Below, piece after piece: positions 31,763-51,070 of a stretch of 64,000 bases of DNA; the stretch's first letter is position 1; each line of letters begins with the position of its first letter. The notes beneath the pieces were generated by a model. It did not search any database. It saw only the letters and a list, made by a program, of their open reading frames with translations, and was not told the origin of the DNA. Origin of the DNA: Candidatus Tenderia electrophaga (GTDB lineage Bacteria; Pseudomonadota; Gammaproteobacteria; Tenderiales; Tenderiaceae); NCBI GenBank assembly GCA_001447805.1, contig CP013099.1:3524235-3588234 (forward strand). The letters run 5' to 3'. Position numbers and translations under genes: made by a program.

Positions 31763-33070
31763 ATGACTTCCGTTAGCGTGAAACGCTTGACGACCCAGGA
31801 CGAAAACTTCTGGTCCGAACTGGACGGGTTGCTGGCCTGGGAGGGCGTCTCGGACGAGCAGGTGGCCGGGGCGGTGAAGGAGATCCTCACCAACGTACGG
31901 CGCCGCGGCGACGAGGCGGTGGTGGACTACACCAATCGTTTCGACCGCATGTCGGTGCAGTCCATGGACGAGCTGGACATCCCTCAGGCACGTATGCAAG
32001 AGGCCTTGGCGCGCATGCCGGCCGACGAGCGCAAGGCCTTGGAATTTTCCACCCAGCGCCTGTTCGCCTATCACGAATACCAGCGCGCCGAGTCCTGGTC
32101 CTACACCGAGCCCGACGGCACCCTGCTGGGCCAGAAGGTGACACCGCTGGACCGCGTCGGCCTCTACGTGCCCGGCGGCAAGGCCAGTTATCCATCATCG
32201 GTATTGATGAATGCGGTGCCGGCCAAGGTGGCGGGGGTGGAGGAGATCATTATGGTGGTGCCCACCCCGGACGGTGAGATCAACGACATGGTGCTGGCGG
32301 CGGCCGCCCTCGTCGGTGTCGACCGCGCCTTTGCCATCGGCGGCGCCCAGGCGGTGGCGGCATTGGCCTACGGCACCGACACGGTGCCCCAGGTGGACAA
32401 GATTGTCGGCCCGGGCAATATCTACGTCGCCACGGCCAAGGGTATGGTGTTCGGCACGGTCGGTATCGACATGATCGCCGGTCCGTCCGAGATCCTGGTG
32501 GTGTGCGACGGCGCCACCGACCCTGATTGGGTGGCCATGGACCTGTTCTCCCAGGCCGAGCACGATGAAGACGCCCAGTCTATCCTGGTCTCGCCCGACG
32601 CCGCGTTTCTGGACAAAGTGCAGCAAAGCATCGACAGGCTGCTGCCGGAGATGGAGCGCGAGGCCATCATCCGCCAGTCCCTGGAGGCGCGCGGTGCCCT
32701 GGTGCTGGTGGAGAATTTGGAGGAGGCCGCCCGAGTGGTCAACTACGTCGCCCCCGAGCACCTGGAGCTGTCGGTGGAGGATCCGGACGAACTACTGGAA
32801 AACATCCGCCACGCCGGGGCCGTATTCATGGGTCGCTACACCGCCGAGGCGGTGGGCGACTACTGCGCCGGGCCCAACCACGTGCTGCCCACCTCGCGCA
32901 CGGCGCGCTTCTCCTCGCCGCTGGGGGTGTATGACTTTCAGAAGCGCTCCAGCCTGATCATGTGTTCGCCCGCCGGCGCCGCCTCGCTGGGCCGGTATGC
33001 CTCCACCTTGGCGCGTGGCGAGGGTCTGACGGCCCATGCCCGCTCGGCGGAGTACCGCATGAAAAAATAG
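31763..33070 (+). CDS. hisD: Histidinol dehydrogenase
   Basis: 435 aa; AAGGGAG RBS. Confidence 0.9.
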
Positions 33071-33123
33071 CGTCGGGGCTTAATCTTTGAGTAAAATGCT
33101 TGTATAAATTAGAGAACACCAAT

Positions 33124-34224
33124 ATGGCATCGGTAATCGTGGATAAAAAAGACGAAAAGATCATTCATTTGATCCGGCCCGATGTGCAGAAGGCGCAGAT
33201 CAATCGCGTGCCCCCCACCCGCGGGCTGATCAAGTTGGATGCCATGGAGAGCCCCTATCCCTGGCCCGCCTATCTGCGCGGCGAGTGGCTGGAGGAAATG
33301 CAGGGAGTGACCTTAAACCGTTATCCCGATCCCCAGTCCACCGAACTCAAGGCGGCGCTGCGCCAGGTATTCGACATTCCGGCCAATATGGATCTGATGC
33401 TGGGCAATGGCTCCGATGAACTGATCCAGATCATCAACCTGGCCCTGGCCGGGGCGGGACGCAAGGTGATGGCGGCGCTGCCCACCTTTTCCATGTTCCA
33501 GATGATTGCCACCTATGTGGGCATGGACTTCGTCGGCGTGCCCTTGCGCGAGGATGATTTCTCCCTCGATATGCCCGCCATGCTGGCGGCGGTGGAAAAA
33601 CATCGCCCCGCGGTGATCTATCTGGCCTACCCCAATAATCCTACCGGTAATTTGTTCGCCGAGGACGAAATCGTGCGTCTGGCCCAGGCCAGTCACGGCC
33701 TGGTGGTGGTGGATGAATCCTATTTGGCCTATGCCGGCGTCAGCGTCATGGAACGACTGCAGCACCACGATAATCTGCTGATCATGCGCTCGCTGTCCAA
33801 GATGGGTCTGGCCGGACTGCGCCTGGGGTATCTGGTGGGACATAATAAGTGGATCAGTCAGCTTGAGCGGCTGCGTCTGCCCTTCAATATCAACGTACTG
33901 ACCCAGTTTACCGCCGAGTTTGCGCTGAATTATTATGATGTGTTCCTGGAGCAGGTGGAACAGATCCGCCGCGACCGTATCTGGGTGGCGGAAAACATGC
34001 GTCGCCTGCAGGGTGTGAGGGTATTTCCCTCCGAGACCAATTTCATTCTGTTCCGGGTGGCGCAGGGCCGCGGTGACGCCATCGATGCCAGCCTGAGAGA
34101 AAAGGGCGTTCTGTTGAAAAACCTCAATAACAGCGATCCGCTGCTGCACGACTGCCTGCGCGTCACCATCGGTAAGCCCAGCGAAAATGTGGCCTTTCTG
34201 TCGGCGCTGACCTCGTCACTGTGA
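33124..34224 (+). CDS. hisC: Histidinol-phosphate aminotransferase
   Basis: Class-II aminotransferase (pyridoxal-phosphate lysine in SLSKMGLAGLRLGY). I use ATG 33124 rather than the track's TTG 33100. Confidence 0.85.
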   Translation: MASVIVDKKDEKIIHLIRPDVQKAQINRVPPTRGLIKLDAMESPYPWPAYLRGEWLEEMQGVTLNRYPDPQSTELKAALRQVFDIPANMDLMLGNGSDELIQIINLALAGAGRKVMAALPTFSMFQMIATYVGMDFVGVPLREDDFSLDMPAMLAAVEKHRPAVIYLAYPNNPTGNLFAEDEIVRLAQASHGLVVVDESYLAYAGVSVMERLQHHDNLLIMRSLSKMGLAGLRLGYLVGHNKWISQLERLRLPFNINVLTQFTAEFALNYYDVFLEQVEQIRRDRIWVAENMRRLQGVRVFPSETNFILFRVAQGRGDAIDASLREKGVLLKNLNNSDPLLHDCLRVTIGKPSENVAFLSALTSSL

Positions 34225-34341
34225 GCGGTCTCGCTTCAAACGGGGCGCGTTTGCGGGTATCCTGGCGGTTTCTATCTGGCTGACTTTAATTAAGTTCGTT
34301 CATGACGGGCGCTGATCGTCCGTATTTGGAGATGTTTGCAA

Positions 34342-34935
34342 ATGGCTGAACGCAAGGCCGCGGTGGCGCGCGATACGCTGGAGACCCAAATTCAGGTCAC
34401 GGTCAATCTGGACGGTGAAGGCAAAGGCGAGTTTGACACGGGGGTGTCCTTTCTCGAGCACATGCTCGATCAGGTGGCGCGTCACGGCATGATCGATCTG
34501 GCGGTCAAGGCCCGGGGCGATTTGCACATCGACGCCCACCACACTGTGGAAGACATCGGCATTGCCATCGGTCAGGCCTGCGCCCAGGCGGTGGGCGACA
34601 AGAAGGGCATTCGCCGCTACGGCCATGCTTACGTACCCTTGGACGAGGCCCTGTCCCGGGTGGTGCTGGATTTTTCCGGCCGTCCCGGGCTGGAGTTTAA
34701 CGTGGATTTTCCGCGCGCCGCCATCGGCGCCTTCGAGACCGATCTGTTTTTCGAATTTTTTCAGGGTTTCGTCAATCACGCCCAGGTGACCCTGCATGTG
34801 GATGCGCTGCGCGGGCGCAATTCGCATCACATCGCCGAGACCGTGTTCAAGGCCTTCGGTCGCGCGCTACGCATGGCGCTGGAGCCCGATGCCCGCATGC
34901 AGGGCGTTATCCCTTCAACCAAGGGGGCGCTGTAA
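34342..34935 (+). CDS. hisB: Imidazoleglycerol-phosphate dehydratase
   Basis: Monofunctional IGPD. ATG at 34342. Confidence 0.85.
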
Positions 34936-34971
34936 GCCAGTCCGGAGCAGCCCGTTTGAACTGACAGCCTC

Positions 34972-35622
34972 ATGACTTCTATTGCAGTAATCGATTACGG
35001 AATGGGTAACCTGCGCTCCGTCGCCAAGGCGCTGGAGCATGTCGCCCCTTCCGCCTCTATCGCCGTGACAGCGAATGCTGAGATCATTGCGGCGGCCGAG
35101 CGCGTGATCTTTCCCGGTGTCGGCGCCCTGCGCGACTGCATGACCGAATTACGTCGTCTGGCGCTGGATCAGGTGATCCGCGAACTGGCCGCCTCGGGTA
35201 AGCCGCTGCTGGGCATTTGCCTGGGCATGCAGGCGCTGCTCGACTGGAGCGAGGAAAACGGCGGCAGCGCGGGGTTGGGGATTCTTCCCGGCAAGGTGCT
35301 GCACTTCGCCGCCGGCCAGACCGATCCGCGCACCGGCGAACCGCTCAAGGTGCCGCACATGGGGTGGAACCAGGTCCATCACAGCGGTGGACATCCTTTG
35401 TGGCGCGACATCCCCCAGGACAGCCGTTTCTATTTCGTGCACAGCTATTATGCCCGGCCTGACAATTCGGCCGACTGCGTCGGGACCACCCATTACGGCC
35501 TGGATTTTGCGTCGGTGCTGGCGCGTAAAAACGTGTTTGCCGCGCAATTTCATCCGGAAAAGAGTCAGCAGGCGGGGCTCACGCTGCTGCGTAACTTTGC
35601 TGAATGGAATGGGACACTATAA
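34972..35622 (+). CDS. hisH: Imidazole glycerol phosphate synthase glutaminase subunit
   Basis: Class-I GATase (GICLGMQ). Confidence 0.9.
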   Translation: MTSIAVIDYGMGNLRSVAKALEHVAPSASIAVTANAEIIAAAERVIFPGVGALRDCMTELRRLALDQVIRELAASGKPLLGICLGMQALLDWSEENGGSAGLGILPGKVLHFAAGQTDPRTGEPLKVPHMGWNQVHHSGGHPLWRDIPQDSRFYFVHSYYARPDNSADCVGTTHYGLDFASVLARKNVFAAQFHPEKSQQAGLTLLRNFAEWNGTL

Positions 35623-35647
35623 TGAATGATACGTTGGGAGCGTCATC

Positions 35648-36378
35648 ATGTTGTTAATACCCGCAATTGATTTAAAACAGGGCAAGTGTGTGCGACTGCG
35701 GCAAGGACGCATGGAGGACGACACGGTATTCTCCGATGATCCGGTGGCCGTGGCCGGACGCTGGGTCGAGGCCGGCGCCAAGCGCCTGCACCTGGTGGAC
35801 CTGGACGGTGCCTTCGCCGGCAAGCCGGTCAACGCCGCCGTGATCCGCGATATCGCCGCTGCCTTTCCCGACCTGCCCATCCAGGTGGGCGGCGGTATTC
35901 GCGACGAAGAGACCATCGACACCTATCTGGCCGCCGGGGTGCAATACGTCATCATCGGCACCAAGGCGGTGAGTGCGCCGCACTTCGTCGGCGATGTCTG
36001 CGCCGAATTCCCCGGTCATATCATCGTCGGGCTGGATGCCAAGGACGGCAAGGTGGCCATCGACGGTTGGTCCAAGCTGTCCCATCATGACATTATCGAC
36101 CTGGCCCAGCATTTCGAGCGCGACGGCGTGGAGGCCATTGTCTATACCGACATCAGCCGCGACGGCATGATGCAGGGCGTGAATGTCGACGCCACCCGTA
36201 AGCTGGCGCGCGCCATTACCATCCCGGTTATCGCCTCGGGCGGCGTCACCGATATGGACGACATCCGCGCCCTGCAGGCGGCCGCGGAGGACGGTATCAT
36301 GGGCGCCATCCTCGGTCGCGCCATCTATGAGGGCCGTATCGACCTGGCCGCAGCGAACGCGTGGGTGAGTGGCGACTG

Positions 36379-36379
<1 letters not shown>
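35648..36379 (+). CDS. hisA: ProFAR isomerase
   Basis: [17 protein letters not shown]. Confidence 0.9.
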
Positions 36380-37142
<763 letters not shown>

Positions 37143-37146
<4 letters not shown>

Positions 37147-37529
37147 GCTGGTTGGACGAGATCGAGTGGAGCGCCGACGGCCTGGTGCCGGTGATCGCCC
37201 AGGAGACCGGCAGCGGGCGGGTACTGATGTTTGCCTGGATGAACCGCGCGGCCCTGGCCGAGACCGCCGCCGACGGCTACGCGGTGTACTGGTCGCGTTC
37301 GCGCCAGCAGTTGTGGCGTAAGGGCGAGCGCTCCGGCCACCGGCAGCGGGTGATCAGCATAAACCTTGATTGCGATGAGGATGTGATCCTGCTGGAAATT
37401 GAACAGCAGGGCGGCATTGCCTGTCATACTGGGCGCAAGAGCTGTTTTTACCGCCGTCTCGAGGACGGTGAGTGGAAGACGGTGGAGCCGGTACTCAAGG
37501 ATCCGGCCGAGATCTACGCGGGCAAGTGA
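37143..37529 (+). CDS. hisI: Phosphoribosyl-AMP cyclohydrolase
   Basis: 128 aa. The GTG start overlaps the hisF stop. Confidence 0.85.
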
Positions 37530-37536
37530 GGCATTA

Positions 37537-37899
37537 ATGGAATCCAGCCAGGTACTGCAGGAACTGGCCCAGCTGCTGGAGTCGCGCAAGGGGGCGGACG
37601 CAGATTCCTCCTATGTGGCCGGCTTGTACGCCAAGGGCCTGGACGCCATTCTGAAGAAGGTCGGCGAAGAGGCCACCGAGACGGTGATGGCGGCCAAGGA
37701 CGGTGACCCGGACAAGTTGGTCTACGAGGTCGCCGATTTGTGGTTTCACACTCTGGTGCTGCTGGCGCAGCAGGGGTTGGCACCGGAGGCCGTGCTTACA
37801 GAGCTGGCGCGCCGCTTCGGTATTTCCGGTATTGAAGAAAAGGCGGCGCGGGGTCAGAATAAACAGCTTTCGGCGCGGCGCGATTTTGGAGAAGAGTGA
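37537..37899 (+). CDS. hisE: Phosphoribosyl-ATP pyrophosphatase
   Basis: ATG at 37537 (M47 of the track ORF). MazG-like HisE. Confidence 0.8.
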
Positions 37900-38156
37900 T
37901 GGGATTTGGTGGCATTAGTATCTGGCAGTTGTTGATTGTTCTGGTGATTGTATTGTTGCTGTTCGGCAGCAAGAAACTGCGCGGGCTGGGCTCGGATCTG
38001 GGCAGTGCGGTGAAGGGCTTTCGCGGCGCCATGGGCGAGGCCGAAAAAGACGAAGACAAGCCCAAGGATGAACCGGCCAAGTTGGACCAGGCCGACAGCA
38101 GCGAGGCGCGGGTGATCGAAGGCGAGGCCGGCGAGCGGGACAAGAAAAAGGTTTAG
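37899..38156 (+). CDS. tatA: Twin-arginine translocase subunit TatA
   Basis: [22 protein letters not shown] helix with an amphipathic helix. The ATG overlaps the hisE stop (TGATG). Confidence 0.8.
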
Positions 38157-38173
38157 CCCGGGCCTGATTTGCC

Positions 38174-38542
38174 ATGTTCGACATCGGCTTCCTGGAAATC
38201 GTGCTGATCACCGTGGTGGCCTTGCTGGTGGTCGGTCCCAGCGAGTTTCCCGGCCTGGTGCGTAACATTGGCCGCGGCCTGGGTAAGGCGCGGGCCTTTC
38301 TCAGCTCGGTCAAATCCGATCTTGATTACGAAATCGACAAGGCCAACGAGATCAAGCAGCTGATGGAAAAAGAGGCCGAGATCGCCCGGCTCCACGAAAT
38401 AATCGAAAACAATGCCGCGACCGTGCCCGTTCAGGGTAAGCCGGCTGAAGAACCCAGCAGGGTCGAGAAGTCAGATGAGCTCAGCCAAGCCGAGACCGAC
38501 CAAGAGTCGCCGCAGCCGGTCAGTGATCGGCGACCGACTTAA
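38174..38542 (+). CDS. tatB: Twin-arginine translocase subunit TatB
   Basis: MFDIGFLEIVLITVVALLVVGP. Confidence 0.75.
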   Translation: MFDIGFLEIVLITVVALLVVGPSEFPGLVRNIGRGLGKARAFLSSVKSDLDYEIDKANEIKQLMEKEAEIARLHEIIENNAATVPVQGKPAEEPSRVEKSDELSQAETDQESPQPVSDRRPT

Positions 38543-39314
38543 TACCCGCTCGACGCGCGACCGCAATCAGGAGCAGCAGGGACTGATCGGCCACCTGATC
38601 GAACTGCGCTCGCGCCTATTGCGTATCTTCTTGTCCATCGGTCTTATTTTTCTGCCGCTGGCCTTCTTCGCCAACGATCTCTACGCCCTGCTGGCCATGC
38701 CGCTGTTGGCGCATATGCCGCAAGGCACCAGCATGATCGCCACCGAAGTGGCCTCGCCCTTTCTGACGCCGTTCAAGTTTGCCCTGGTGCTGGCCATTTT
38801 TCTCGGCATGCCGGTGATCCTGTATCACTTCTGGGCCTTTATTGCGCCGGGGCTGTACGTCCACGAACGTAAGATGATGCTGCCCCTGTTGGCGGGCAGC
38901 ACCGCGCTGTTTTACGGCGGGGTGATATTTGCCTACTACGTCGTGTTTCCGCTGATCTTCGGGTTTTTTCTCAGCGTCGTGCCGCAGGGCGTGGCGGTGA
39001 TGACCGACATTAGTAAGTATCTCGATTTTGTTCTCAAGATCTTTTTTGCCTTCGGTTTGGCCTTTGAGGTACCCATTGTCACCATCGTCTTGGTCTGGGC
39101 CGGCGCCACCACGCCCGAACAGCTGGTCGCCAAGCGTCCTTATGTGATTGTGGGGGCCTTTGTGCTGGGGATGTTGTTTACCCCGCCGGACATGATTTCG
39201 CAAACCCTGTTGGCGATTCCCATGTGGTTGTTGTTCGAGATCGGCGTGGTGTTGTCACGCATGGTGGCCAAGCGCCAGGCCGAGCGGGACACGGCCGAAG
39301 AGGAACAGTCTTAA
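38475..39314 (+). CDS. tatC: Twin-arginine translocase subunit TatC (start uncertain)
   Basis: LIGHLIELRSRL…FFANDLYALLAMPL matches the TatC N-terminus. The only in-frame ATG is at 38475, which gives a 35-aa basic N-extension and overlaps the tatB 3' end by 68 nt. Alternatively translation starts at a non-canonical codon such as CTG ~38583. Confidence 0.7.
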   Translation: MSSAKPRPTKSRRSRSVIGDRLNTRSTRDRNQEQQGLIGHLIELRSRLLRIFLSIGLIFLPLAFFANDLYALLAMPLLAHMPQGTSMIATEVASPFLTPFKFALVLAIFLGMPVILYHFWAFIAPGLYVHERKMMLPLLAGSTALFYGGVIFAYYVVFPLIFGFFLSVVPQGVAVMTDISKYLDFVLKIFFAFGLAFEVPIVTIVLVWAGATTPEQLVAKRPYVIVGAFVLGMLFTPPDMISQTLLAIPMWLLFEIGVVLSRMVAKRQAERDTAEEEQS

Positions 39315-39324
39315 GCCGGATTTC

Positions 39325-40491
39325 TCAGCGGGCTTGCTCCAACAGTGGTTGCGGCCGCTCGCCGATGACCACCTCCAATGTTTGCGTTTGACCCTGACGC
39401 AGGATTTCCACCTCCAATACCGTGCCTGGTGCAAGGCTGGCGATGACATTCATTAGTGAGCGACTGCCGCTGACTGGCTCATTGTTGACGCGCACGATGA
39501 CGTCGCCCGGTTGCAGCCCGGCCTCAGCGGCCGGTCCGTCGGGCTGGATGCCAGCGATCAACGCGCCCTGGATGTCGCCCAGACCGAAGGATTCGGCCAG
39601 GCTGTCGCTCAGGTCCTGTACCTCCACGCCCAGCCAGCCACGCAGCGGCCGGCCGTGTTCGATGATCTGTTTCATCACGCCCTTAGCCAGGCTTACCGGA
39701 ATGGCGAAGCCGATCCCCTGCGAACCGCCGGAGCGGGAAAAAATGGCGGTGTTAATACCGATCAGCTGCCCCGCGGTATTGATCAAGGCGCCGCCGGAGT
39801 TGCCGGGATTGATGGCGGCGTCGGTCTGGATGAAGTTTTCGAAGGTGCTGAGTCCCAGTTGCGAGCGGCCGGTGGCGCTGACGATGCCGCTCGTGACGGT
39901 CTGACCCACGCCGAAGGGGTTGCCGATGGCAAGCACTACGTCGCCGACGCGCAGGGCCTCGGACTGGCCGAACGTAATGGCCGGGACGTTGCTGATGTTG
40001 ACCTTGAGCACGGCCAAATCGCTTTCTGGGTCGGTACCGACGATGGCGGCGGCGGCGGTGCGGCCGTCGTGTAGCGCCACTTCGATTTCGTCGGCACCCT
40101 GGATGACATGATTATTGGTGAGGATGAAGCCTTGGTCGTTGACGATGACGCCGGAGCCCAGGCTGTTTTCCAGGCGCTGTTGCGGCGCGGGCGCGCGGTC
40201 GCCGAAAAAACGTCGAAACAGGGGGTCCTCGAACAAGGGGTTGGCGCGTTGTGTTACCACCTTGCGCGTGTAGACATTGACCACGGCGGGCGCGGCGATA
40301 TCGACCGCATGGGCATATGAGGCCAGGCCGCTTTCGATTGCCTGGCGCGTGGGAGAGGGGGCTTCAATAAATTCTACGCTTGGTCTACTCTCGAATGCCT
40401 CGGGCTTGAACAGCAACAACAACACGAAGGCGAACGCCAAACCGGCGGTGATTGCTTCGGTCGCGAAGGAGAGCAGTTTTCGTAGTTGCAT
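39325..40491 (-). CDS. DegS/AlgW-type periplasmic serine endoprotease (HtrA family, single PDZ)
   Basis: ATG at 40491 (M119 of the track ORF). N-terminal TM anchor, catalytic triad motifs (TNNHV…D…GNSGGAL) and one PDZ domain. Its position next to the his genes mirrors Pseudomonas algW. Confidence 0.8.
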   Translation of the reverse strand: MQLRKLLSFATEAITAGLAFAFVLLLLFKPEAFESRPSVEFIEAPSPTRQAIESGLASYAHAVDIAAPAVVNVYTRKVVTQRANPLFEDPLFRRFFGDRAPAPQQRLENSLGSGVIVNDQGFILTNNHVIQGADEIEVALHDGRTAAAAIVGTDPESDLAVLKVNISNVPAITFGQSEALRVGDVVLAIGNPFGVGQTVTSGIVSATGRSQLGLSTFENFIQTDAAINPGNSGGALINTAGQLIGINTAIFSRSGGSQGIGFAIPVSLAKGVMKQIIEHGRPLRGWLGVEVQDLSDSLAESFGLGDIQGALIAGIQPDGPAAEAGLQPGDVIVRVNNEPVSGSRSLMNVIASLAPGTVLEVEILRQGQTQTLEVVIGERPQPLLEQAR

Positions 40492-40551
40492 CGTTGGGCG
40501 TATCTTGAGTAAGTTGGCAGCCAATGTTAACGCAAAGCGTAGGATAAGTGC

Positions 40552-41301
40552 ATGGTTCAATTGGAAGAGCTGGTAAATTTTTGTGACGAACTGCTGGCCG
40601 CGAATAGCTTTGGCGACTATGCCCCCAATGGACTGCAGGTGGAAGGGGCGGTGCAGGTCAACAAGATTGTTTCCGGCGTAACCGCCAGCCAGGCCTTGAT
40701 CGAGGCGGCGGCGGCCAACGATGCCGATGTCCTGTTGGTGCATCACGGCTTTTTTTGGAAGGGCGAATCGGCGTGTATCACCGGCATCAAAAAACGCCGC
40801 ATTGCACGCTTGTTGGCGGCCGACATAAGTTTGCTGGCCTATCATTTACCCTTGGATGCCCATCCCGATATCGGTAACAATGCGCAGCTCGCGCGCCGCT
40901 TGGGGCTTCAGGTGGAAGGGCGTTTCGGGCGTGACGCGCTTGGCATGGTCGGGCGTCTGCCGCAGCTGATGACGAGCGCCGAACTGATTCAGCATATCAG
41001 CGTTAGGCTGGGACGGCAGGCGATCCATCTGGGTGAAGGTGACGCGCAAATCGAACGGGTCGCTTGGTGCACAGGGGCGGCGCAAGGATATATCGAGGCG
41101 ACACCGGGCTTGGGGGTGCAGGCCTATATCAGCGGTGAAATGTCCGAGCAGACGACCCACTTTGCCAGGGAGACCGGCATCCATTATGTGTCGGCCGGCC
41201 ATCATGCCACGGAACGTTACGGTGTGCAGGCCTTGGGTGAGTTACTGGCGCGGCAATTCGGCCTGACACATCAGTTTATCGACATCGACAACCCGGTTTG
41301 A
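40552..41301 (+). CDS. Nif3-like dinuclear-metal-centre protein (YbgI / GTP cyclohydrolase 1 type 2 family)
   Basis: 249 aa; Nif3 motifs (VLLVHHG, GHHATE). Confidence 0.8.
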   Translation: MVQLEELVNFCDELLAANSFGDYAPNGLQVEGAVQVNKIVSGVTASQALIEAAAANDADVLLVHHGFFWKGESACITGIKKRRIARLLAADISLLAYHLPLDAHPDIGNNAQLARRLGLQVEGRFGRDALGMVGRLPQLMTSAELIQHISVRLGRQAIHLGEGDAQIERVAWCTGAAQGYIEATPGLGVQAYISGEMSEQTTHFARETGIHYVSAGHHATERYGVQALGELLARQFGLTHQFIDIDNPV

Positions 41302-41841: not shown

Positions 41842-42468
41842 ATGTTTGTGAGTGAAAAATTTCTCTCTATAGGGGGCGGAAATAAGGCCGGCCATGCGAG
41901 TGTCAACAAGGGGCTTGCCGTGTTTTTCGCGATGCTGGCGGCTGCCTTCTTTGTGAATGTCGCGCAGGCGGAAGTGCCGAATGCCGTGCCGCCTAAGGGG
42001 ACGCATGACGGCGAGCATGTGCCGCAACCCATCGAGTTTCCGCACGACATTCATGCCGACATCAACGACATCAACTGCATGTATTGTCACACCTATGCAC
42101 GTCGCAGCAAGGTGGCCGGAATCCCGCCCACCAGCAAATGCATGGGGTGCCATTCGGTCATCGCAACCGACAAGGATCGTATCAAGAAGCTTACGGAATA
42201 TTGGGAAAACAATGATCCGCCGAAGTGGAAAAAGGTCCATGACGTGCCGGATTATGTGCATTTCACTCACGAGAAACATCTGCAGCGATTTGTGTTTAAC
42301 AACGAAGGTATGAAGGTGGAGAACGTCTCCGAAGTCTGTGCCTTCTGTCATGGCGACGTTAAGAAAATGACTGTGGCGCGCAAGGTTAAGCCGCTGAACA
42401 TGGGCTTCTGCGTGCGTTGTCATGAAGCGAACGACGGTCCTTTCGATTGCTGGAAGTGCCACAAGTAA
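41842..42468 (+). CDS. actA: Alternative Complex III subunit ActA (pentaheme cytochrome c)
   Basis: Five CxxCH motifs (CMYCH, CMGCH, CAFCH, CVRCH, CWKCH), an N-terminal membrane anchor and a GAGGA RBS. Confidence 0.75.
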   Translation: MFVSEKFLSIGGGNKAGHASVNKGLAVFFAMLAAAFFVNVAQAEVPNAVPPKGTHDGEHVPQPIEFPHDIHADINDINCMYCHTYARRSKVAGIPPTSKCMGCHSVIATDKDRIKKLTEYWENNDPPKWKKVHDVPDYVHFTHEKHLQRFVFNNEGMKVENVSEVCAFCHGDVKKMTVARKVKPLNMGFCVRCHEANDGPFDCWKCHK

Positions 42469-42537
42469 CCTCGGGTGGGCTGGGGCCTGGCGTCCGGCCG
42501 TCAATTTTTAACTAATATATTTAACGGATGATTTGTT

Positions 42538-44757
42538 ATGAGTGGTAACGATATCAACCGCAGAGACTTCCTGAAATTCATGGGGATCGGTGGCGTCGGT
42601 GCCGCGACCTTGAGTGGTTGCGACATGCCCACCACCATCACCCTTGAGGAGGGTAAGGAAGACGTGGTTTCCTACCTGGCGCCGGAAGAATATGCGATAC
42701 CGGGTATTGGCATCTATTTTGCATCCACCTGTCAGCAATGTCCTTCGGGCTGTGGTGTGCACGGCCGGGTTCGCGAAGGTCGTTTGTTGAAGCTGGAAGG
42801 CAATCCCGCAGCCATGAACGGCAGGGGACTGTGCCAGATGGGGCAGGCCAGCGTGCAAAGTCATTACAATCCCGACCGTATAACGCAGCCCATGGCGCGT
42901 AAAAATGGTGCCTTGACGCCCATCAGTTGGGACGAAGCCTGGCAATTGATGGGCGATAAGGTCTCCGGTGTGGATGCGGGGCGTAGCGCTTGGTTTACCG
43001 GGACTGTCAGCGGCCACCAGGCCAAGCTCCTGGAGGCGCTGAACGAGGCCTGGGGTAGCAAAGACCATTACGTGTACGAAGCCGTCAATAACGCGGTGGG
43101 CAAGGCGGTCAACGAGGCGGTCCTGGGTGATCCCATGCCGGCGTATCGTATCGACAAGGCCAAGTCCATATTGTCGTTCGGGGCCGATTTTCTCGGCACC
43201 TGGATGTCGCCGGTACACTTCTCGCGCGAGTACGTCAAGTTCCGCGGCGGTGACCGAGGTGTGCTGATCCAGGTCGAGCCGAAGATGACCCTGACCGGTG
43301 GTAACGCCGACCTGTGGGTGGCGGCCCGGCCCGGTACCGAAGGCGTGTTGGCTCTCGGTATCGCCAACGTGCTGCTGACCAAGAACCAGGTGAAGGGCGA
43401 CAAATTGCCGCAGGCGGCCTTGGATGAAATCGCCAAGTACGATGTCAACAAGGTGACAGAAATCACCGGCGTGGGTGGCGATACCATGGTACGCATCGCC
43501 AATTACCTGACCAATCATAGCCCCAGTTTAGTGTTGTCGGGTGAGTCGGCCCATAACCATGTCAATGGTTATGAGAACGCCATGGCAGCCATGATGCTGA
43601 ATGTGTTGTTGGGTAATGTGGGTAAAACCATCGAGCCTTCCAATAGCATCGCCTTCGAGGATCTCAAGGCTAAGCACGGCAACAGCCGTGCCCTGGCGGA
43701 TTTCGCCAAGGCGGTGGACGGCGGCAAGTACGATGTGGTGTTTTTCCACGGTGCCAACCCCGTTTACACCGCGCCGGCGCATCTGGCGATGGCGGAGAAG
43801 TTGGCCAAGGTGCCGTTTAAGGTGGCCTTGTCTATGTTCCCCGATGAAACCACTGTGGCCGCCGACCTGGTGTTGCCGCTTTCTTCGCCATATGAAGAAT
43901 GGGCCACTACGGTGGCGCCCTATCAGCCCAAAGAGGCGGCCATCAGCATATCGCAGCCACTGATGAAACAGCTCTATCCCGAAACTATGGGCCTGGGCGA
44001 CCTGCTGCTGACCATGCTTAAGCACCATCAAGTCGAAGACTATGCCGATTACGGTGACTATTATGCTTATCTGCGCGCTGCTTTGGAGCAGATGCCGGCA
44101 TCGGTCAAGGGCGGTAAATCCGGGGGGCAGTTCTGGTCGGCGGCGTTGCAGCAGGGCCTGATCAAGGCGCCGGCCAAGGCTGGTTCGCTCAAGGTGAGCC
44201 TGGGGAGTATCAAGCAATCGATACCCCAGGCGGGTAATGATTATCCGCTGCACCTGGTGCCATCCACCAATCAGAACATGTATGACGGTCGCAACGCCAA
44301 CCTGCCCTGGTTGCAGGAGGCGCCGGATCAAATCAGCAAAGTGTTCTGGGATTCCTGGGCAGAGCTTCATCCCAAAACCGCTGCCAGACTCGGTGTGAAA
44401 GAGGGTGACTATGTCCGGGTGGAGTCGGACCAGGGCGCAATCGAGACACAGGTCTATATCCACAAAGGCGTGCATGTGGACGCTGTGTGCGTGCCTATCG
44501 GGCGCGGCCATGAGGCATACGGTCGCTATGCCGAGGGGCTCGGTGTCAATCCGCTCAAGATCCTCAGCCCAGCGGTTGAGCAGAAGAGCGGAGAGCTGGC
44601 CACCCATGCTACCCGGGTGCGGGTCAGCAAGACCGGCCGCCATGCCGAGTTACCACGCTTAGGGGGCAGCGAAACCCAGGTGGGACGCCGCTTGGTTAGT
44701 AGCATCCCAGCTGATGCTTTCAGAAGGACTGAGGGAGGCGATAACAATGTCGCTTAA
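42538..44757 (+). CDS. actB1: ACIII subunit ActB1 (molybdopterin-oxidoreductase-like domain, Tat signal)
   Basis: Twin-arginine signal ([21 protein letters not shown]) and a 739-aa MoCo-oxidoreductase-like fold. Followed by an overlapping FeS-subunit start. Confidence 0.75.
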
Positions 44758-44898
44758 GAATATACTCGAAAACTGGTCTCAATATCGTAAGGGCCACGAG
44801 CAGGGTGGCCATCATGAATACGAACACATGTGGGCCATGGCCATTGACCTGAACCGATGTACTGGCTGTAATGCCTGTTCCGTGGCCTGTTACGCCGA
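43031..44898. repeat. Tandem direct repeat, copy 1 (1,868 bp)
   Basis: Identical to 44899-46766. Base-by-base comparison of the first ~110 nt matched, and all six-frame ORFs recur with identical translations at a constant +1868 offset. Confidence 0.85.
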
Positions 44899-44926
44899 TG
44901 GAGGCGCTGAACGAGGCCTGGGGTAG
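44747..44926 (+). pseudogene. actB2 5' fragment (60 codons) created by the tandem duplication
   Basis: [10 protein letters not shown]…[10 protein letters not shown] is identical to the start of the full actB2 at 46615. It then reads across the junction into 9 out-of-frame codons and a stop. Confidence 0.6.
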
Positions 44927-46625
44927 CAAAGACCATTACGTGTACGAAGCCGTCAATAACGCGGTGGGCAAGGCGGTCAACGAGGCGGTCCTGGGTGATC
45001 CCATGCCGGCGTATCGTATCGACAAGGCCAAGTCCATATTGTCGTTCGGGGCCGATTTTCTCGGCACCTGGATGTCGCCGGTACACTTCTCGCGCGAGTA
45101 CGTCAAGTTCCGCGGCGGTGACCGAGGTGTGCTGATCCAGGTCGAGCCGAAGATGACCCTGACCGGTGGTAACGCCGACCTGTGGGTGGCGGCCCGGCCC
45201 GGTACCGAAGGCGTGTTGGCTCTCGGTATCGCCAACGTGCTGCTGACCAAGAACCAGGTGAAGGGCGACAAATTGCCGCAGGCGGCCTTGGATGAAATCG
45301 CCAAGTACGATGTCAACAAGGTGACAGAAATCACCGGCGTGGGTGGCGATACCATGGTACGCATCGCCAATTACCTGACCAATCATAGCCCCAGTTTAGT
45401 GTTGTCGGGTGAGTCGGCCCATAACCATGTCAATGGTTATGAGAACGCCATGGCAGCCATGATGCTGAATGTGTTGTTGGGTAATGTGGGTAAAACCATC
45501 GAGCCTTCCAATAGCATCGCCTTCGAGGATCTCAAGGCTAAGCACGGCAACAGCCGTGCCCTGGCGGATTTCGCCAAGGCGGTGGACGGCGGCAAGTACG
45601 ATGTGGTGTTTTTCCACGGTGCCAACCCCGTTTACACCGCGCCGGCGCATCTGGCGATGGCGGAGAAGTTGGCCAAGGTGCCGTTTAAGGTGGCCTTGTC
45701 TATGTTCCCCGATGAAACCACTGTGGCCGCCGACCTGGTGTTGCCGCTTTCTTCGCCATATGAAGAATGGGCCACTACGGTGGCGCCCTATCAGCCCAAA
45801 GAGGCGGCCATCAGCATATCGCAGCCACTGATGAAACAGCTCTATCCCGAAACTATGGGCCTGGGCGACCTGCTGCTGACCATGCTTAAGCACCATCAAG
45901 TCGAAGACTATGCCGATTACGGTGACTATTATGCTTATCTGCGCGCTGCTTTGGAGCAGATGCCGGCATCGGTCAAGGGCGGTAAATCCGGGGGGCAGTT
46001 CTGGTCGGCGGCGTTGCAGCAGGGCCTGATCAAGGCGCCGGCCAAGGCTGGTTCGCTCAAGGTGAGCCTGGGGAGTATCAAGCAATCGATACCCCAGGCG
46101 GGTAATGATTATCCGCTGCACCTGGTGCCATCCACCAATCAGAACATGTATGACGGTCGCAACGCCAACCTGCCCTGGTTGCAGGAGGCGCCGGATCAAA
46201 TCAGCAAAGTGTTCTGGGATTCCTGGGCAGAGCTTCATCCCAAAACCGCTGCCAGACTCGGTGTGAAAGAGGGTGACTATGTCCGGGTGGAGTCGGACCA
46301 GGGCGCAATCGAGACACAGGTCTATATCCACAAAGGCGTGCATGTGGACGCTGTGTGCGTGCCTATCGGGCGCGGCCATGAGGCATACGGTCGCTATGCC
46401 GAGGGGCTCGGTGTCAATCCGCTCAAGATCCTCAGCCCAGCGGTTGAGCAGAAGAGCGGAGAGCTGGCCACCCATGCTACCCGGGTGCGGGTCAGCAAGA
46501 CCGGCCGCCATGCCGAGTTACCACGCTTAGGGGGCAGCGAAACCCAGGTGGGACGCCGCTTGGTTAGTAGCATCCCAGCTGATGCTTTCAGAAGGACTGA
46601 GGGAGGCGATAACAATGTCGCTTAA
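44899..46625 (+). pseudogene. N-terminally truncated second copy of actB1 (lacks first ~164 codons including the Tat signal)
   Basis: In-frame identical copy of ActB1 residues ~165-739. The six-frame ORF 44871-46625 gains a fortuitous ATG 28 nt upstream of the junction. Confidence 0.6.
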
Positions 46626-46766
46626 GAATATACTCGAAAACTGGTCTCAATATCGTAAGGGCCACGAGCAGGGTGGCCATCATGAATACGAACACATGTG
46701 GGCCATGGCCATTGACCTGAACCGATGTACTGGCTGTAATGCCTGTTCCGTGGCCTGTTACGCCGA
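44899..46766. repeat. Tandem direct repeat, copy 2 (1,868 bp)
   Basis: Begins tggaggcgctgaacgagg… exactly as at 43031. The junction reads …tgttacgccga|tggaggcgct…. Confidence 0.85.
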
Positions 46767-47460
46767 GAACAACTTGGCAGTGGTGGGCAAGGAACGCATG
46801 AAAAAAGGCCAGGGCATGCACTGGCTCCGGGTTGAGCGCTACTGGGATGAACCCCAGCTCGGCGGCGATGACAAGGAATATCAAGAGCGGGGCGGCAGCT
46901 TTCTGCCGCTGATGTGTCAACAGTGTAACGCGGCTACCTGTGAGCCGGTGTGTCCGGTTGCGGCGACCTATCACACCCCCGACGGTCTGAATGCCCAGGT
47001 CTATAACCGCTGCATCGGCTCGCGTTATTGCTCCAATAACTGCCCTTATCGCCTGCGCTATTTCAATTTCTATTCCTATTACGAGGATTCGTGGCCCGAA
47101 CCGCTGCACATGCAGTTGAATCCCGATCTTAGCGTGCGCGACAAGGGCGTTATGGAGAAGTGCACCTTCTGCGTTCAGCGCATTCGCACCGCCAAGGATA
47201 CTGCGCGCCGCGAAGGACGCGAGGTGCAGGACGGCGATGTGATTACCGCCTGCGCCCAGACCTGTCCTACCGAGGCGATCGTCTTCGGCGACATACTGGA
47301 TGAGAACTCCCAGGTGCGTAAGATTTGGCGGGCACAGCAGGTTCAACTCGGCGTCACGGAGCAAGATAAGACAAATCCCGAGTTGCGCGGCTACCGTATA
47401 TTGGAAGCCTTGAATACCGATCCTTGTGTAACGTATCTCGACAGGGTGCGCGAGGCCTGA
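46615..47460 (+). CDS. actB2: ACIII subunit ActB2 (4Fe-4S ferredoxin-type iron-sulfur subunit)
   Basis: Four Cys clusters ([42 protein letters not shown]…CAQTCP). GGAGG RBS. Confidence 0.75.
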   Translation: MSLKNILENWSQYRKGHEQGGHHEYEHMWAMAIDLNRCTGCNACSVACYAENNLAVVGKERMKKGQGMHWLRVERYWDEPQLGGDDKEYQERGGSFLPLMCQQCNAATCEPVCPVAATYHTPDGLNAQVYNRCIGSRYCSNNCPYRLRYFNFYSYYEDSWPEPLHMQLNPDLSVRDKGVMEKCTFCVQRIRTAKDTARREGREVQDGDVITACAQTCPTEAIVFGDILDENSQVRKIWRAQQVQLGVTEQDKTNPELRGYRILEALNTDPCVTYLDRVREA

Positions 47461-47514: not shown

Positions 47515-48924
47515 ATGCAAACTAAAGATATAAATGAAAATATAGAGTGGGCGAAAATCAACGAGGATGTGCTCCGCAGTATGGAGAATCCTCGGATTGG
47601 CTACTGGATCGCCGTTGCCTGTTGTGTCGCGATGGTGATGTGTGCCGTGGTTGCCGAAATTTATCAGTACCAAACCGGTATGGGGGTCGGCAACCTCAAC
47701 TGGCCGCACATGTGGGATCTTTACATCGCCACCTTCGTATTCTGGATCGGGATGAGCCACTCCGGGACGCTGTTGTCGGCGATTCTGCATATTATCCAGG
47801 CCGACTGGCGCAAACCGATTTATCGTTTCGCCGAGGCGATGACCACCTTCTCGCTGATGACCGCGGGCCTGTTCCCGATGATCCACTTGGGCCGCGTCTG
47901 GAACATGTATTGGGTGCTTCCCTACGTTTCCGATCGTGGCATCTGGCCCAATTTTCGTTCACCGTTGATCTGGGATGCGTTCGCGATCACTACCTATTTG
48001 ACTTCGTCAGCACTGTTCCTGTTTATCGGTATGATTCCCGATCTGGCGATTTGCCGGGACAATGCCCGCGGCTGGCGCCAAAAGCTGTATACCGTATTGT
48101 CGCTGGGATGGCAGGGGGACGACCGCCAGTGGCGCAATTTCCGCAAAATCTACCTGTTGATGGCCTGCTTCCTGATTCCGCTGGCGGTCTCGGTGCACTC
48201 CATCGTTTCGGCTGACTTTGCCATGTCGATCATGCCAGGCTGGCACATCACTTCGTTCCCGCCCTACTTCGTTGCGGGTGCTCTTTATTCCGGCTGTGCC
48301 GCGATCATCTCACTGTTCATCATTCTGCGCTATTTCTTCCGCTTTGAAGATTACATGACGATTCCGATCCTGGAAAAGACCTGTAAGCTGACCTTCGCCA
48401 TTGCCATGGTGTGGAGCTACTTGACGCTGGTTGAGTTCGCCTCTGTCTGGTACGGCCATGACGCTGTGGCCAAGGAGGCCTTGATGGGCCGTTTTACTGG
48501 GGCGTATGCGCCCCTGTTCTGGCTCATGCTGTTCTGCGGGATCGTTGTCCCCTTTACCTTGGCCTTCGAAAAATTGAGGCGACATTTGCCTACCATGTTC
48601 GTGGTGTCACTCGTGCTCAACTTAGGTATGTGGCTGGAGCGCTATATGATTGTTACACCCACCTTGCAGCTGTCGTACTATCCTTTTGCCTGGGATGTAA
48701 TGTGGCCCAGCATGGTGCAGTGGGCCATCGTCTTCGGCAGTTTCGGCTGGTTCGGGCTGCTGTTCCTGATCTTCGTCAAGGTGTTTCCGTCGGTCTCCAT
48801 GTACGAAGTCAAGGAGATGGTGTTTCATCGCCGCCAGCACCACAGTCCGGCGCTGGCTGAGCAACTCCACCGCCGCGCCGGCGACCCGAAACCGGGTGAG
48901 CAACCGAGTACAGAAGGAGCTTGA
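47515..48924 (+). CDS. actC: ACIII subunit ActC (NrfD/PsrC-like polytopic membrane quinol-interacting subunit)
   Basis: 469-aa multi-TM NrfD-family protein. Confidence 0.75.
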   Translation: MQTKDINENIEWAKINEDVLRSMENPRIGYWIAVACCVAMVMCAVVAEIYQYQTGMGVGNLNWPHMWDLYIATFVFWIGMSHSGTLLSAILHIIQADWRKPIYRFAEAMTTFSLMTAGLFPMIHLGRVWNMYWVLPYVSDRGIWPNFRSPLIWDAFAITTYLTSSALFLFIGMIPDLAICRDNARGWRQKLYTVLSLGWQGDDRQWRNFRKIYLLMACFLIPLAVSVHSIVSADFAMSIMPGWHITSFPPYFVAGALYSGCAAIISLFIILRYFFRFEDYMTIPILEKTCKLTFAIAMVWSYLTLVEFASVWYGHDAVAKEALMGRFTGAYAPLFWLMLFCGIVVPFTLAFEKLRRHLPTMFVVSLVLNLGMWLERYMIVTPTLQLSYYPFAWDVMWPSMVQWAIVFGSFGWFGLLFLIFVKVFPSVSMYEVKEMVFHRRQHHSPALAEQLHRRAGDPKPGEQPSTEGA

Positions 48925-48926
48925 CC

Positions 48927-49454
48927 ATGAAGCGTTACTATGTAATGGGGCTGTTTAGTAACTTCGAAGAGGCGTTCGCAACGATTTCCGAGATTCGCGA
49001 ACACGCCGTTCCGGGTGTGTCCGTGGATGACGTCACACTCAAGTCACCAATCGAGCATCCGGAGATCGAGGAGGTGTTGGGTGACCGGGGTTCTCCCGTG
49101 CCCAAGTTCACCCTCTTCGGTGCGATCTTCGGAATTTGCTTCGGCTTTCTGTTCCTGGCGTCGGCCCAGGCAACGTTTCTGGTGCAACCGCAGGGCGGAA
49201 AACCGGTGGTGCCGTTGCCGACCAACATCGTCTTGACTTACGAAATGTTGATCCTGTTTGGCGTGATTTCCACGGTGATCGGATTTCTGATCAATGCCCG
49301 TTTGATGACCAAACGCCATCCTTTGTACTCGGAAAAGGTCAGCCTAGACCAGGTCGGAGTCATGTTGGAGTTGGATGAGAAGAATGTTGATCCCATCAAA
49401 GATTTATTCAAAAGGCACAAAGTATTGGAAATTCGTGAAGAGGTTTCGCAATGA
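48927..49454 (+). CDS. actD: ACIII subunit ActD (DUF3341)
   Basis: ATG at 48927 with AAGGAG RBS. Two TM helices, 175 aa. Confidence 0.65.
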   Translation: MKRYYVMGLFSNFEEAFATISEIREHAVPGVSVDDVTLKSPIEHPEIEEVLGDRGSPVPKFTLFGAIFGICFGFLFLASAQATFLVQPQGGKPVVPLPTNIVLTYEMLILFGVISTVIGFLINARLMTKRHPLYSEKVSLDQVGVMLELDEKNVDPIKDLFKRHKVLEIREEVSQ

Positions 49455-49996
49455 GACTTAAGAGTGTAATTGCAGCGGCAGCGCTGATGATGCCGGCGGC
49501 GGCCATGGCCTGGCCCTGGTCTACCGATATGATGAATCAGCCGAACATCAAGCCGCAGGAAGGTGAGATGATCCCGTTCCCCGAGCGCTCTATTCCTGTT
49601 GGCGGTATCCCGACGCAAGTGGCGGATCGCGAAGCGGCCAAGCCGATGAAAAATCCCATCGAGGCGACCCCTAAATCGATTGCCCAAGGGCGCACGCTGT
49701 TTAAGATTTACTGTGCCGCCTGTCATGGCCTGACCGGGGCGGGAGACTCTCCTGTCAGCGGCAAAATCGGGGCTATCGCACTCAATGATAGCTATGTGCA
49801 GGAGAACCTGACCGAGGGATGGGTATGGGGCACGATCACTTTCGGTAGCTATGTAATGCCGGCCTACGGGGTGCCGCAAGGCAAGCGCGGTTCCAACGAT
49901 TTGAATGTTGAAGAGCGTTGGCATGTGGTGAATTACGTCAAGCACGGTCTGATGAAGGATCATGCGGCGGCGACAAGAACGGCCGCAGCCGAGTAA
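49451..49996 (+). CDS. actE: ACIII subunit ActE (monoheme cytochrome c)
   Basis: Signal peptide and a single CAACH motif. ATGA overlap with actD. Confidence 0.65.
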   Translation: MRLKSVIAAAALMMPAAAMAWPWSTDMMNQPNIKPQEGEMIPFPERSIPVGGIPTQVADREAAKPMKNPIEATPKSIAQGRTLFKIYCAACHGLTGAGDSPVSGKIGAIALNDSYVQENLTEGWVWGTITFGSYVMPAYGVPQGKRGSNDLNVEERWHVVNYVKHGLMKDHAAATRTAAAE

Positions 49997-50038: not shown

Positions 50039-51070
50039 ATGGAAAACTTCGGTTTCTGGTCGGTTGTAATCACCAACTTCTTAATTGTGCTCTACCTGGC
50101 CCTAGGTGGAGTGACCTTGTCGGCCGCATTGCATCTGGCAAACGGTAAATGGCGTTTTCAGATTCGCTCGTTGGCATGTTCGCTGGCCGTGCTGTTCCCG
50201 ATCGCCTTTGTCCTGTTGCTGATCATTCTGACGGCGGGCGAGTCGGCCTTCCCATGGCTGGCGCATGCGCATGACGAAGGTCATCACCTGCCGGGTTGGC
50301 ACAACTATACCTTCCTGGTGGCGCGTAATATCATCGGGTTCCTGCTGGTGGCGGGCATGTACCTGCTCTTCATTAAATGGCAGTACGAAACCACCGTCGA
50401 TAGCTCCTATGCAGTGCAGCGGCGCTTCCGTAACCTTGCGCTGATGATACCGTTTGTGTACTTCACTTATGGCACTATGGTGGCGTGGGACTTTGAAATG
50501 ACCATGCTGCCAAATTGGCATAGTGCGAGTTACGGCGCCTACCATTTCCAAAGTAACTTCCACATGTTTCTGGGCTTTTTTACCATCTTCCTGTTCATAC
50601 TTTACCGCTCAGGCAAACTGGTGAAACCGTTTGAGGGGTATATCTTCAACTTCATGGCTCAGTTTATGCTGGCGATGACCATTTTGTGGACGTATCTCTA
50701 CTTCACACAGTATTTGATCATGTGGTATGGCCGTCTGCCTTTCGAGATGGAGCGTTATTGGGACATGATGAGCAACATGAGCGGCCTGTGGTGGTTGTTC
50801 TTGGCGCTCAAGTTCGTTATTCCGTTCTGCACGCTGGCGATTACACCCAATCGTCATAATCCACCGGTGATCGTGATGGTGGCGGCGAGCATTGTGCTGG
50901 GTACCTGGATCGAGCGCTATACCTGGGTTTCCGGTTCCGTCGACCCGCAGTACTATCACACCCCCATGTCGTCAATCGCCGATATCGTGGTTACGGTGGT
51001 GGTCTTTGCGGTCAGTTGGTTTGCAGTGAAATGGAGTCTGACCCGATACGGACTGATGCGCAGCTCATAA
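50039..51070 (+). CDS. actF: ACIII subunit ActF (second NrfD-like membrane subunit)
   Basis: 343-aa multi-TM protein. Last gene before a strong terminator. Confidence 0.65.
   Translation: MENFGFWSVVITNFLIVLYLALGGVTLSAALHLANGKWRFQIRSLACSLAVLFPIAFVLLLIILTAGESAFPWLAHAHDEGHHLPGWHNYTFLVARNIIGFLLVAGMYLLFIKWQYETTVDSSYAVQRRFRNLALMIPFVYFTYGTMVAWDFEMTMLPNWHSASYGAYHFQSNFHMFLGFFTIFLFILYRSGKLVKPFEGYIFNFMAQFMLAMTILWTYLYFTQYLIMWYGRLPFEMERYWDMMSNMSGLWWLFLALKFVIPFCTLAITPNRHNPPVIVMVAASIVLGTWIERYTWVSGSVDPQYYHTPMSSIADIVVTVVVFAVSWFAVKWSLTRYGLMRSS

Follow-up and report, generated by a model that had tools for sequence, protein, structure and literature searches.

How should the two extra gene pieces in the operon for alternative complex III (ACIII) of Candidatus Tenderia electrophaga be understood, and does the "hypothetical protein" Tel_16350 represent an additional subunit of this complex? 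Ca. Tenderia electrophaga is the uncultivated electroautotroph of the Biocathode-MCL enrichment, and the window analysed here, a stretch of 64,000 nucleotides of its contig CP013099.1 (assembly GCA_001447805.1, positions 3,524,235 to 3,588,234), contains the act operon, where a truncated actB2 and a truncated actB1 are found between the full-length copies of both genes. We consider, with a probability of about 0.85, that this arrangement results from a genuine and very recent tandem duplication within the operon, which is segregating in one lineage and has left two gene remnants next to an intact full set of genes. Tel_16350 is a duplicated piece of actB1, and not an extra ACIII subunit.

When the window is aligned to itself with a shift of 1868 nt, a single unbroken run of 1868 identical bases emerges, 43031-44898 against 44899-46766. 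The duplicated unit is thus present as copy 1 (43031..44898) and copy 2 (44899..46766), two segments of 1868 bp without an assigned strand and 100% identical to each other, which cover codons 165 (in part) to 739 of actB1 plus the first 152 nt of actB2. Both copies are placed head-to-tail and directly abut, with nothing in between and only one novel junction, and they constitute the only direct or inverted repeat of at least 60 nt in the window. The break lies between 44898 and 44899, where TTACGCCGA is followed by TGGAGGCGCTG (44889..44908, + strand; in a longer context, GTTACGCCGA followed by TGGAGGCGCT), and there is no microhomology at this point, the bases flanking the identity run being mismatched. 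The joining of both copies creates a new in-frame ATG at 44898-44900, with the A provided by copy 1 and the TG by copy 2, which replaces Leu165. Since both breakpoints fall inside genes, 152 nt into actB2 and in codon 165 of actB1, no complete gene has been gained, and a scan for promoters and terminators found no such signal created at the junction.

The full-length actB1 (42538..44757; Tel_16345, ALP54594.1), which like all genes and start signals mentioned here lies on the + strand, encodes a protein of 739 aa with the twin-arginine translocation (Tat) motif NRRDFLK, an FS0-type four-Cys motif, and a molybdopterin-oxidoreductase-like domain. The full-length actB2 (46615..47460; Tel_16355, ALP54596.1), whose first 152 nt are located within copy 2, encodes the iron-sulfur (FeS) subunit, of 281 aa. 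A preliminary description, made from the sequence alone, had both genes intact and separated by an ActB2 stub and an ActB1 fragment devoid of the Tat signal, and these open reading frames (ORFs) are confirmed, as is the overlap of the genuine actB2 start with the end of the fragment ORF (46615 against 46625). The stub (44747..44926) stops early at the junction, as described, with a length of 59 aa plus TAG. It keeps 50 of the 281 native ActB2 residues, including the first CxxCxxCxxxC motif, followed by the tail DGGAERGLG, that is, E51D and eight out-of-frame residues, and it is called as a 59-aa gene on nine ENA contigs. Regarding the actB1 remnant (44898..46625), the 584-aa ORF previously pointed out does exist, starting at the upstream ATG 44871 and ending at 46625, but the junction ATG at 44898 had been missed. 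It is the 575-aa product of this second start that is annotated by GenBank (Tel_16350, ALP54595.1) and called by Prodigal, not the 584-aa one, and it consists of Met plus residues 166-739, so that the part contributed by copy 2 begins at residue 166 and not at about 165. Missing from the remnant are features essential to the localisation and fold of ActB1, namely the Tat signal, Cys28 of the lipobox, the FS0 cysteines (Cys65/68/72/99), and some 50 residues at the beginning of the PF00384 molybdopterin-like domain.

The translation signals of this region were duplicated together with the coding sequences. The Shine-Dalgarno (SD) sequence GGAGG of copy 1 (44734..44738) belongs to the actB2 start and now serves the stub, whose ATG at 44747 is found 8 nt after it and overlaps the actB1 stop by 11 nt, whereas the GGAGG of copy 2 (46602..46606) is the signal of the genuine actB2 start. 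With an anti-SD duplex energy of -11.4 kcal/mol, this actB2/stub start is the strongest in the operon, and the stub would accordingly be expected to be translated and coupled to actB1. Having its own strong SD, actB2 can initiate independently. Contrary to this, no SD match was found at either of the two remnant starts, ATG 44871 and ATG 44898, both with a duplex energy of -1.5 kcal/mol against a mean of -3.0 for the operon background, and the TAG of the stub sits 26 nt downstream of the junction ATG. The lack of an SD at these starts makes the remnant more likely a poorly translated product than an abundant cytoplasmic protein, which weakens the earlier idea of a cytoplasmic fragment with a molybdenum cofactor domain. 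RNA folding at the actB2 start predicts an 8-bp hairpin over part of the SD and the AUG, which is no better than that of shuffled sequences (z = -0.32) and was given no weight. Both remnants are most likely non-functional by-products.

Evidence for the junction comes from several data sets. CP013099.1 is described as a PacBio-sequenced genome (PMC5371394), and the 575-aa junction ORF is present on ten public contigs, corresponding to this NCBI genome and nine SPAdes-style contigs of 20-200 kb from ENA. The ENA contig examined (L002/L003) carries an identical junction, and a 2-bp indel at another position sets it apart from the reference, marking it as an independent assembly and not as a copy. 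The Logan contigs are unitig-type assemblies with k=31, unable to resolve repeats, and it was predicted beforehand that, in samples with the junction, they would be interrupted at both ends of the repeat. ActB2 residues 42-281, which gene calling should yield on a contig beginning at 46737, were looked up and found on six Logan contigs, from runs SRR1956857, SRR1953061, SRR1956906, SRR1956907 and two more. Those inspected (4/4) have 46737 as their first position, 30 nt (k-1) short of the distal boundary. The look-up of ActB1 residues 166-739 returned contig SRR1953061_4671, exactly 1868 nt long and identical to 43031-44898. Such breaks at the repeat boundaries can arise only if the junction k-mers are present in the raw short reads. 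A degenerate 40-mer covering the junction plus the normal distal boundary, which does match the window and the fetched loci, gave no match in a scan of the JGI metagenome contigs, a collection evidently without these samples. The preliminary description had named an artefact as one possibility to be checked, and the duplication survives this check, with its junction in the PacBio genome and in nine ENA contigs, plus graph branch points in six more runs.

Even though the duplication is real, it is not the only form of this locus. The JGI contigs Ga0247267_00054 (L001) and Ga0247261_00060 (L004) bear a single copy, the former being otherwise 100% identical to the window over 22 kb, and the flanks of both are 100% identical to the window over 14-22 kb. 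When the 23 longest contigs with this exact ActB2 were classified by the gene upstream, 16/23 had the full actB1 and 7/23 the fragment. These otherwise identical single-copy alleles, which are the majority of the public contigs read, lend indirect support to the suggestion made earlier that duplications of this kind are rarely fixed. The single-copy order actA-B1-B2-C-D-E-F is also that of a 97%-identical strain (L005) and of two relatives with 50-55% identity (L006 and L007); in these, actB2 begins either in overlap with the actB1 stop or just a few nt beyond it. The scan of genome contigs with ActB1 found only three relatives, at 50-55% identity, which were used only for the ancestral gene order. 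Because L005, L006 and L007 are all single-copy, the single copy is the ancestral state, and the duplication a young variant within one clonal laboratory lineage.

The 2-bp indel mentioned above is located at the start of actB1 (window 42534-42540), which reads TTGTTATGAGT in the window, L001 and L005, and TTGTTGAGT in the ENA contigs L002/L003 (L002 9990-10003) and the JGI contig L004 (5995-6003). This derived deletion turns the ATG start of actB1 into TTG and is the only difference besides the duplication seen in ~22 kb among the assemblies of the lineage, so that both variants are in actB1. All four combinations of both variants occur in these consensus contigs: duplication with ATG in the window, duplication with the deletion in L002, single copy with ATG in L001, and single copy with the deletion in L004. 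This distribution suggests a recurrent precise collapse of the duplication, as far as consensus sequences can represent individual haplotypes.

We can envisage the following sequence of events. The duplication would have originated when actB2, at 152 nt into the gene, became linked to codon 165 of actB1 by an illegitimate, homology-free join. The stub would have inherited the strong ribosome-binding site of actB2, along with the overlap with actB1, and it is probably made and then degraded. The actB1 remnant, in turn, would be translated weakly, if at all, and only through re-initiation after the stop codon of the stub, while the genuine actB2 would initiate from its own strong SD. Finally, a perfect direct repeat of 1.9 kb could be collapsed precisely by RecA-dependent unequal recombination, and would thus be expected to be unstable. 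The coexistence of duplicated and single-copy alleles in public assemblies is expected from this capacity of the direct repeat to collapse.

The published RNA-seq data offer a partial view of the expression of this locus. Table S1 of PMC5371394 includes Tel_16350 with the ACIII genes and makes no remark on it, and in the same study multi-mapping reads are placed at random by Bowtie2 and counted by featureCounts. The densities per nt, derived from the logCPM (log counts per million) values of that table, are 1.75 for actA, 1.64 for actB1, 1.42 for the fragment, 0.52 for actB2, 0.49 for actC, 0.57 for actD, 0.49 for actE, and 0.41 for actF. The density of actA and actB1 is 3-5x that of actB2-actF, which means that RNA abundance drops, for whatever reason, close to or at the actB1/actB2 boundary. 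Once deconvolved, the unique 5' part of actB1 has a density of ~2.39, both copies summed 2.84, and the unique part of actB2 0.32. The summed copies are thus 1.19 times the unique 5' part of actB1, where 2 would be expected for two equally transcribed copies and 1 for a single copy. This ratio is in keeping with a template that has one copy, as well as with a duplicated one whose RNA drops to the downstream level just after copy 1, that is, a polar effect. The Logan runs with boundary breaks have accessions contemporaneous with those of the metatranscriptome submission (SRX978937, SAMN03462067-74), the metagenomes of the replicate reactors having later BioSample numbers, and no relevant paper was found to contain these sample and run accessions. 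If, as the chronology of accessions alone would indicate, these runs are the RNA libraries, the junction is transcribed.

Several points weigh against a recent duplication with no function of its own. A homology-free junction and 100% identity between copies would also be expected of an artefact or of an engineered insertion, and only the independent read sets argue otherwise. The evidence consists of contigs rather than raw reads, so that the copy number may be two or more, in any fraction of the cells of a sample, and the four apparent haplotypes may not be physically linked, contigs being consensus sequences. Moreover, a substantial number of published RNA-seq reads are assigned to Tel_16350, even though these reads are uninformative about function because multi-mapping reads are split at random. 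Lastly, the duplication has persisted in many reactor samples although it is expected to be unstable, which could mean selection instead of neutrality.

This last point can be developed in two ways. The duplication might have acted as a polar insertion that cut actB2-actF about five-fold relative to actA/actB1 in the transcriptomics reactors and, considered together with the independent ATG to TTG deletion, ACIII would then be a target of selection for its down-tuning or re-balancing during long-term cathode growth, a proposal that we regard as doubtful. In more general terms, and in our opinion unlikely, the duplication would be kept by selection in the electrode enrichment through an altered ACIII expression, either by a polar block or by some use for the Tat-less ActB1 fragment. 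The polar route has a conceivable basis, as an untranslated stretch of 1.7 kb could trigger Rho-dependent termination or a faster decay of the mRNA, lowering actB2-F relative to actA/actB1. The fall from 1.75 in actA and ~2.4 in the unique 5' part of actB1 to 0.32-0.57 in actB2-F is in agreement with it, and so is the summed density of the copies, only 1.19x that of the unique part, as expected if the RNA drops immediately beyond copy 1 to the level seen downstream. The RNA falls a single time, and a site inside the repeat would act twice. However, these numbers are matched equally well by a template with a single copy, if the RNA level naturally drops between actB1 and actB2 (a ratio of 1.0 being expected and one of 1.0-1.4 observed). 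The presence of the duplicated allele in at least ten assemblies despite the expected instability also speaks for selection, but single-copy alleles dominate the contigs read (16/23). Similarly, the only other variant in ~22 kb, the 2-bp deletion that changes ATG into TTG, strikes the same gene, but two variants in one gene within 22 kb are not statistically compelling (p about 0.1). As for a use of the fragment, no complete gene is amplified, the 100% identity of the copies leaves no time for a new function, and the fragment is devoid of SD, signal peptide and FS0 domain.

Far less probable is an artefact, with the duplication introduced during assembly of the reference genome and absent from any cell. 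The perfect identity of exactly two copies, the lack of microhomology, and the many single-copy contigs of the same lineage would be compatible with such an error. Against it, PacBio reads are in general several kb long and can span an array of 3.7 kb. The junction ORF is found on nine short-read ENA contigs as well as in the PacBio genome, with a private 2-bp difference in the ENA contig examined that reveals its independent assembly. In addition, in six runs the breaks of the Logan contigs lie k-1 nt before the boundary, and one contig equals the unit. The ENA contigs, the boundary breaks and the unit-length Logan contig effectively exclude the artefact. Least probable of all is an amplification to more than two copies, or an excised circle of 1868 bp beside a single-copy chromosome, in place of a stable two-copy array, since, although short-read graphs show only the end of the unit joined to its start and not copy number or topology, the closed PacBio-based genome has exactly two chromosomal copies, SPAdes contigs traverse the array from one flank through both units to the other (X-U-U-Y), and no replication or recombination function is encoded in the 1868-bp unit.

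The recent tandem duplication that we favour would belong to an ordinary and well-known kind of mutation, and the locus represents no new kind of system. Spontaneous RecA-independent tandem (segmental) duplications have reportedly been studied in Salmonella and Escherichia coli, with Anderson and Roth, and Reams and Roth, among the names associated with that work. As in those cases, the copies here are head-to-tail and identical, with one novel join, and polymorphic in a clonal population, and the wild type could be restored precisely by unequal homologous recombination. Contrary to the classic selected duplications, which raise gene dosage, the unit here is only 1.9 kb long and lies within an operon, with no complete gene amplified. 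The absence of any microhomology at the join is a further difference from the Salmonella and E. coli cases, as is the fact that the duplication is seen in metagenome assemblies of an uncultivated organism and not by means of genetics.

The main importance of this locus lies in the annotation, read mapping and quantification of actB1 in the omics data of a model electroautotroph. Published expression tables divide the reads and peptides of actB1 between Tel_16345 and Tel_16350, with the consequence that both values are distorted. In addition, at least two alleles circulate in the Biocathode-MCL lineage, of which the reference genome shows just one. No mention of the duplication, Tel_16350 or ALP54595 was found in the main texts of the searchable literature. 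The locus also provides a clean natural case of a tandem duplication within an operon, observed at a stage when it is still polymorphic; if the duplication were polar on actB2-F, it would bear on the amount of ACIII needed for the proposed reverse electron transport.

Despite the duplication, one full set actA-B1-B2-C-D-E-F is kept, and the operon is, by the homology of its products, an alternative complex III. The first gene, actA (41842..42468; Tel_16340), encodes a pentaheme cytochrome c subunit of 208 aa with five CxxCH motifs and matches to cytochrome c3/c7 Pfam families, and is labelled as ACIII in Table S1 of Eddie 2017 (PMC5371394). ActB1 aligns to the N-terminal two thirds of the solved ActB proteins (8K9E_B, 2.7e-41; 6LOD_B, 1.1e-39; 6F0K_B, 3.5e-39; also 6BTM_B), and ActB2 to their C-terminal FeS domain (6F0K_B, 1.2e-74; also 8K9E_B, 6LOD_B and 6BTM_B). 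Downstream of them are found actC (47515..48924; 469 aa), coding for an NrfD-like membrane subunit (PF03916, 3.7e-24); actD (48927..49454; 175 aa; PF11821 ActD, 2.3e-29), whose gene call was taken from L002; actE (49451..49996; 181 aa), coding for a monoheme cytochrome c with one CxxCH and matches to cytochrome c Pfam families; and actF (50039..51070; 343 aa), whose product matches the ActF chains 6F0K_F (5.4e-17), 6LOD_F and 6BTM_F. A role as quinol:cytochrome c oxidoreductase, or in the reverse direction, has been proposed in the literature for the predicted ACIII of Ca. Tenderia electrophaga.

The full subunit set and order are shared with the ACIII of Rhodothermus marinus (6F0K), Flavobacterium johnsoniae (6BTM) and Roseiflexus castenholzii (6LOD), and with 8K9E. 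However, these solved complexes have one fused ActB of 930-1040 aa, whereas ActB is split here into the overlapping genes B1 and B2, and this allele has in addition a partial B1 and a partial B2 between actB1 and actB2. The separation of the molybdopterin-like and FeS subunits is reminiscent of the menaquinone reductase Qrc (QrcABCD) of sulfate reducers, and the best NCBIfam matches of ActA, ActB1 and ActB2 are indeed QrcA, QrcB and QrcC. The identity as Qrc was nevertheless rejected, as the scores are below the curated cut-offs (316.8 vs 440, 216.9 vs 400, and 71.7 vs 180, respectively) and the operon has ActD, ActE and ActF, which Qrc lacks.

Regarding ActB1 itself, its residues 1-28 (42538-42621) contain, after the Tat motif, a lipobox-like LSGC with Cys28, and L006 and L007, the relatives at 50-55% identity, have conserved this layout (RRxFLK ... 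LAGC). This conserved combination of Tat motif and lipobox suggests that ActB1 would be a Tat-exported lipoprotein. ActB1 and its relatives also have an FS0-type motif, C-x2-C-x3-C...C, in residues 65-99 (42730-42837; C65, C68, C72 and C99), whose cysteines align to the [4Fe-4S] ligands of ArrA (6CZ7_A) and NapA (2JIM_A). In contrast, the solved 8K9E_B has no cysteines at the FS0 positions, and the type of ACIII with a split ActB may thus carry an extra cluster absent from the structurally characterised ACIII.

Between actA and actB1, at 42478-42508, there is a GC-rich terminator-like hairpin followed by ATTTTT; despite it, the published read density of actB1 is not below that of actA. The region upstream of the act operon (32538-41300) encodes a his biosynthesis cluster, tatA/tatB/tatC, a DegP-like protease, and a NIF3-family gene. 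The presence of tatA/tatB/tatC implies that the Tat machinery that would export ActB1 is encoded within ~5 kb of it.

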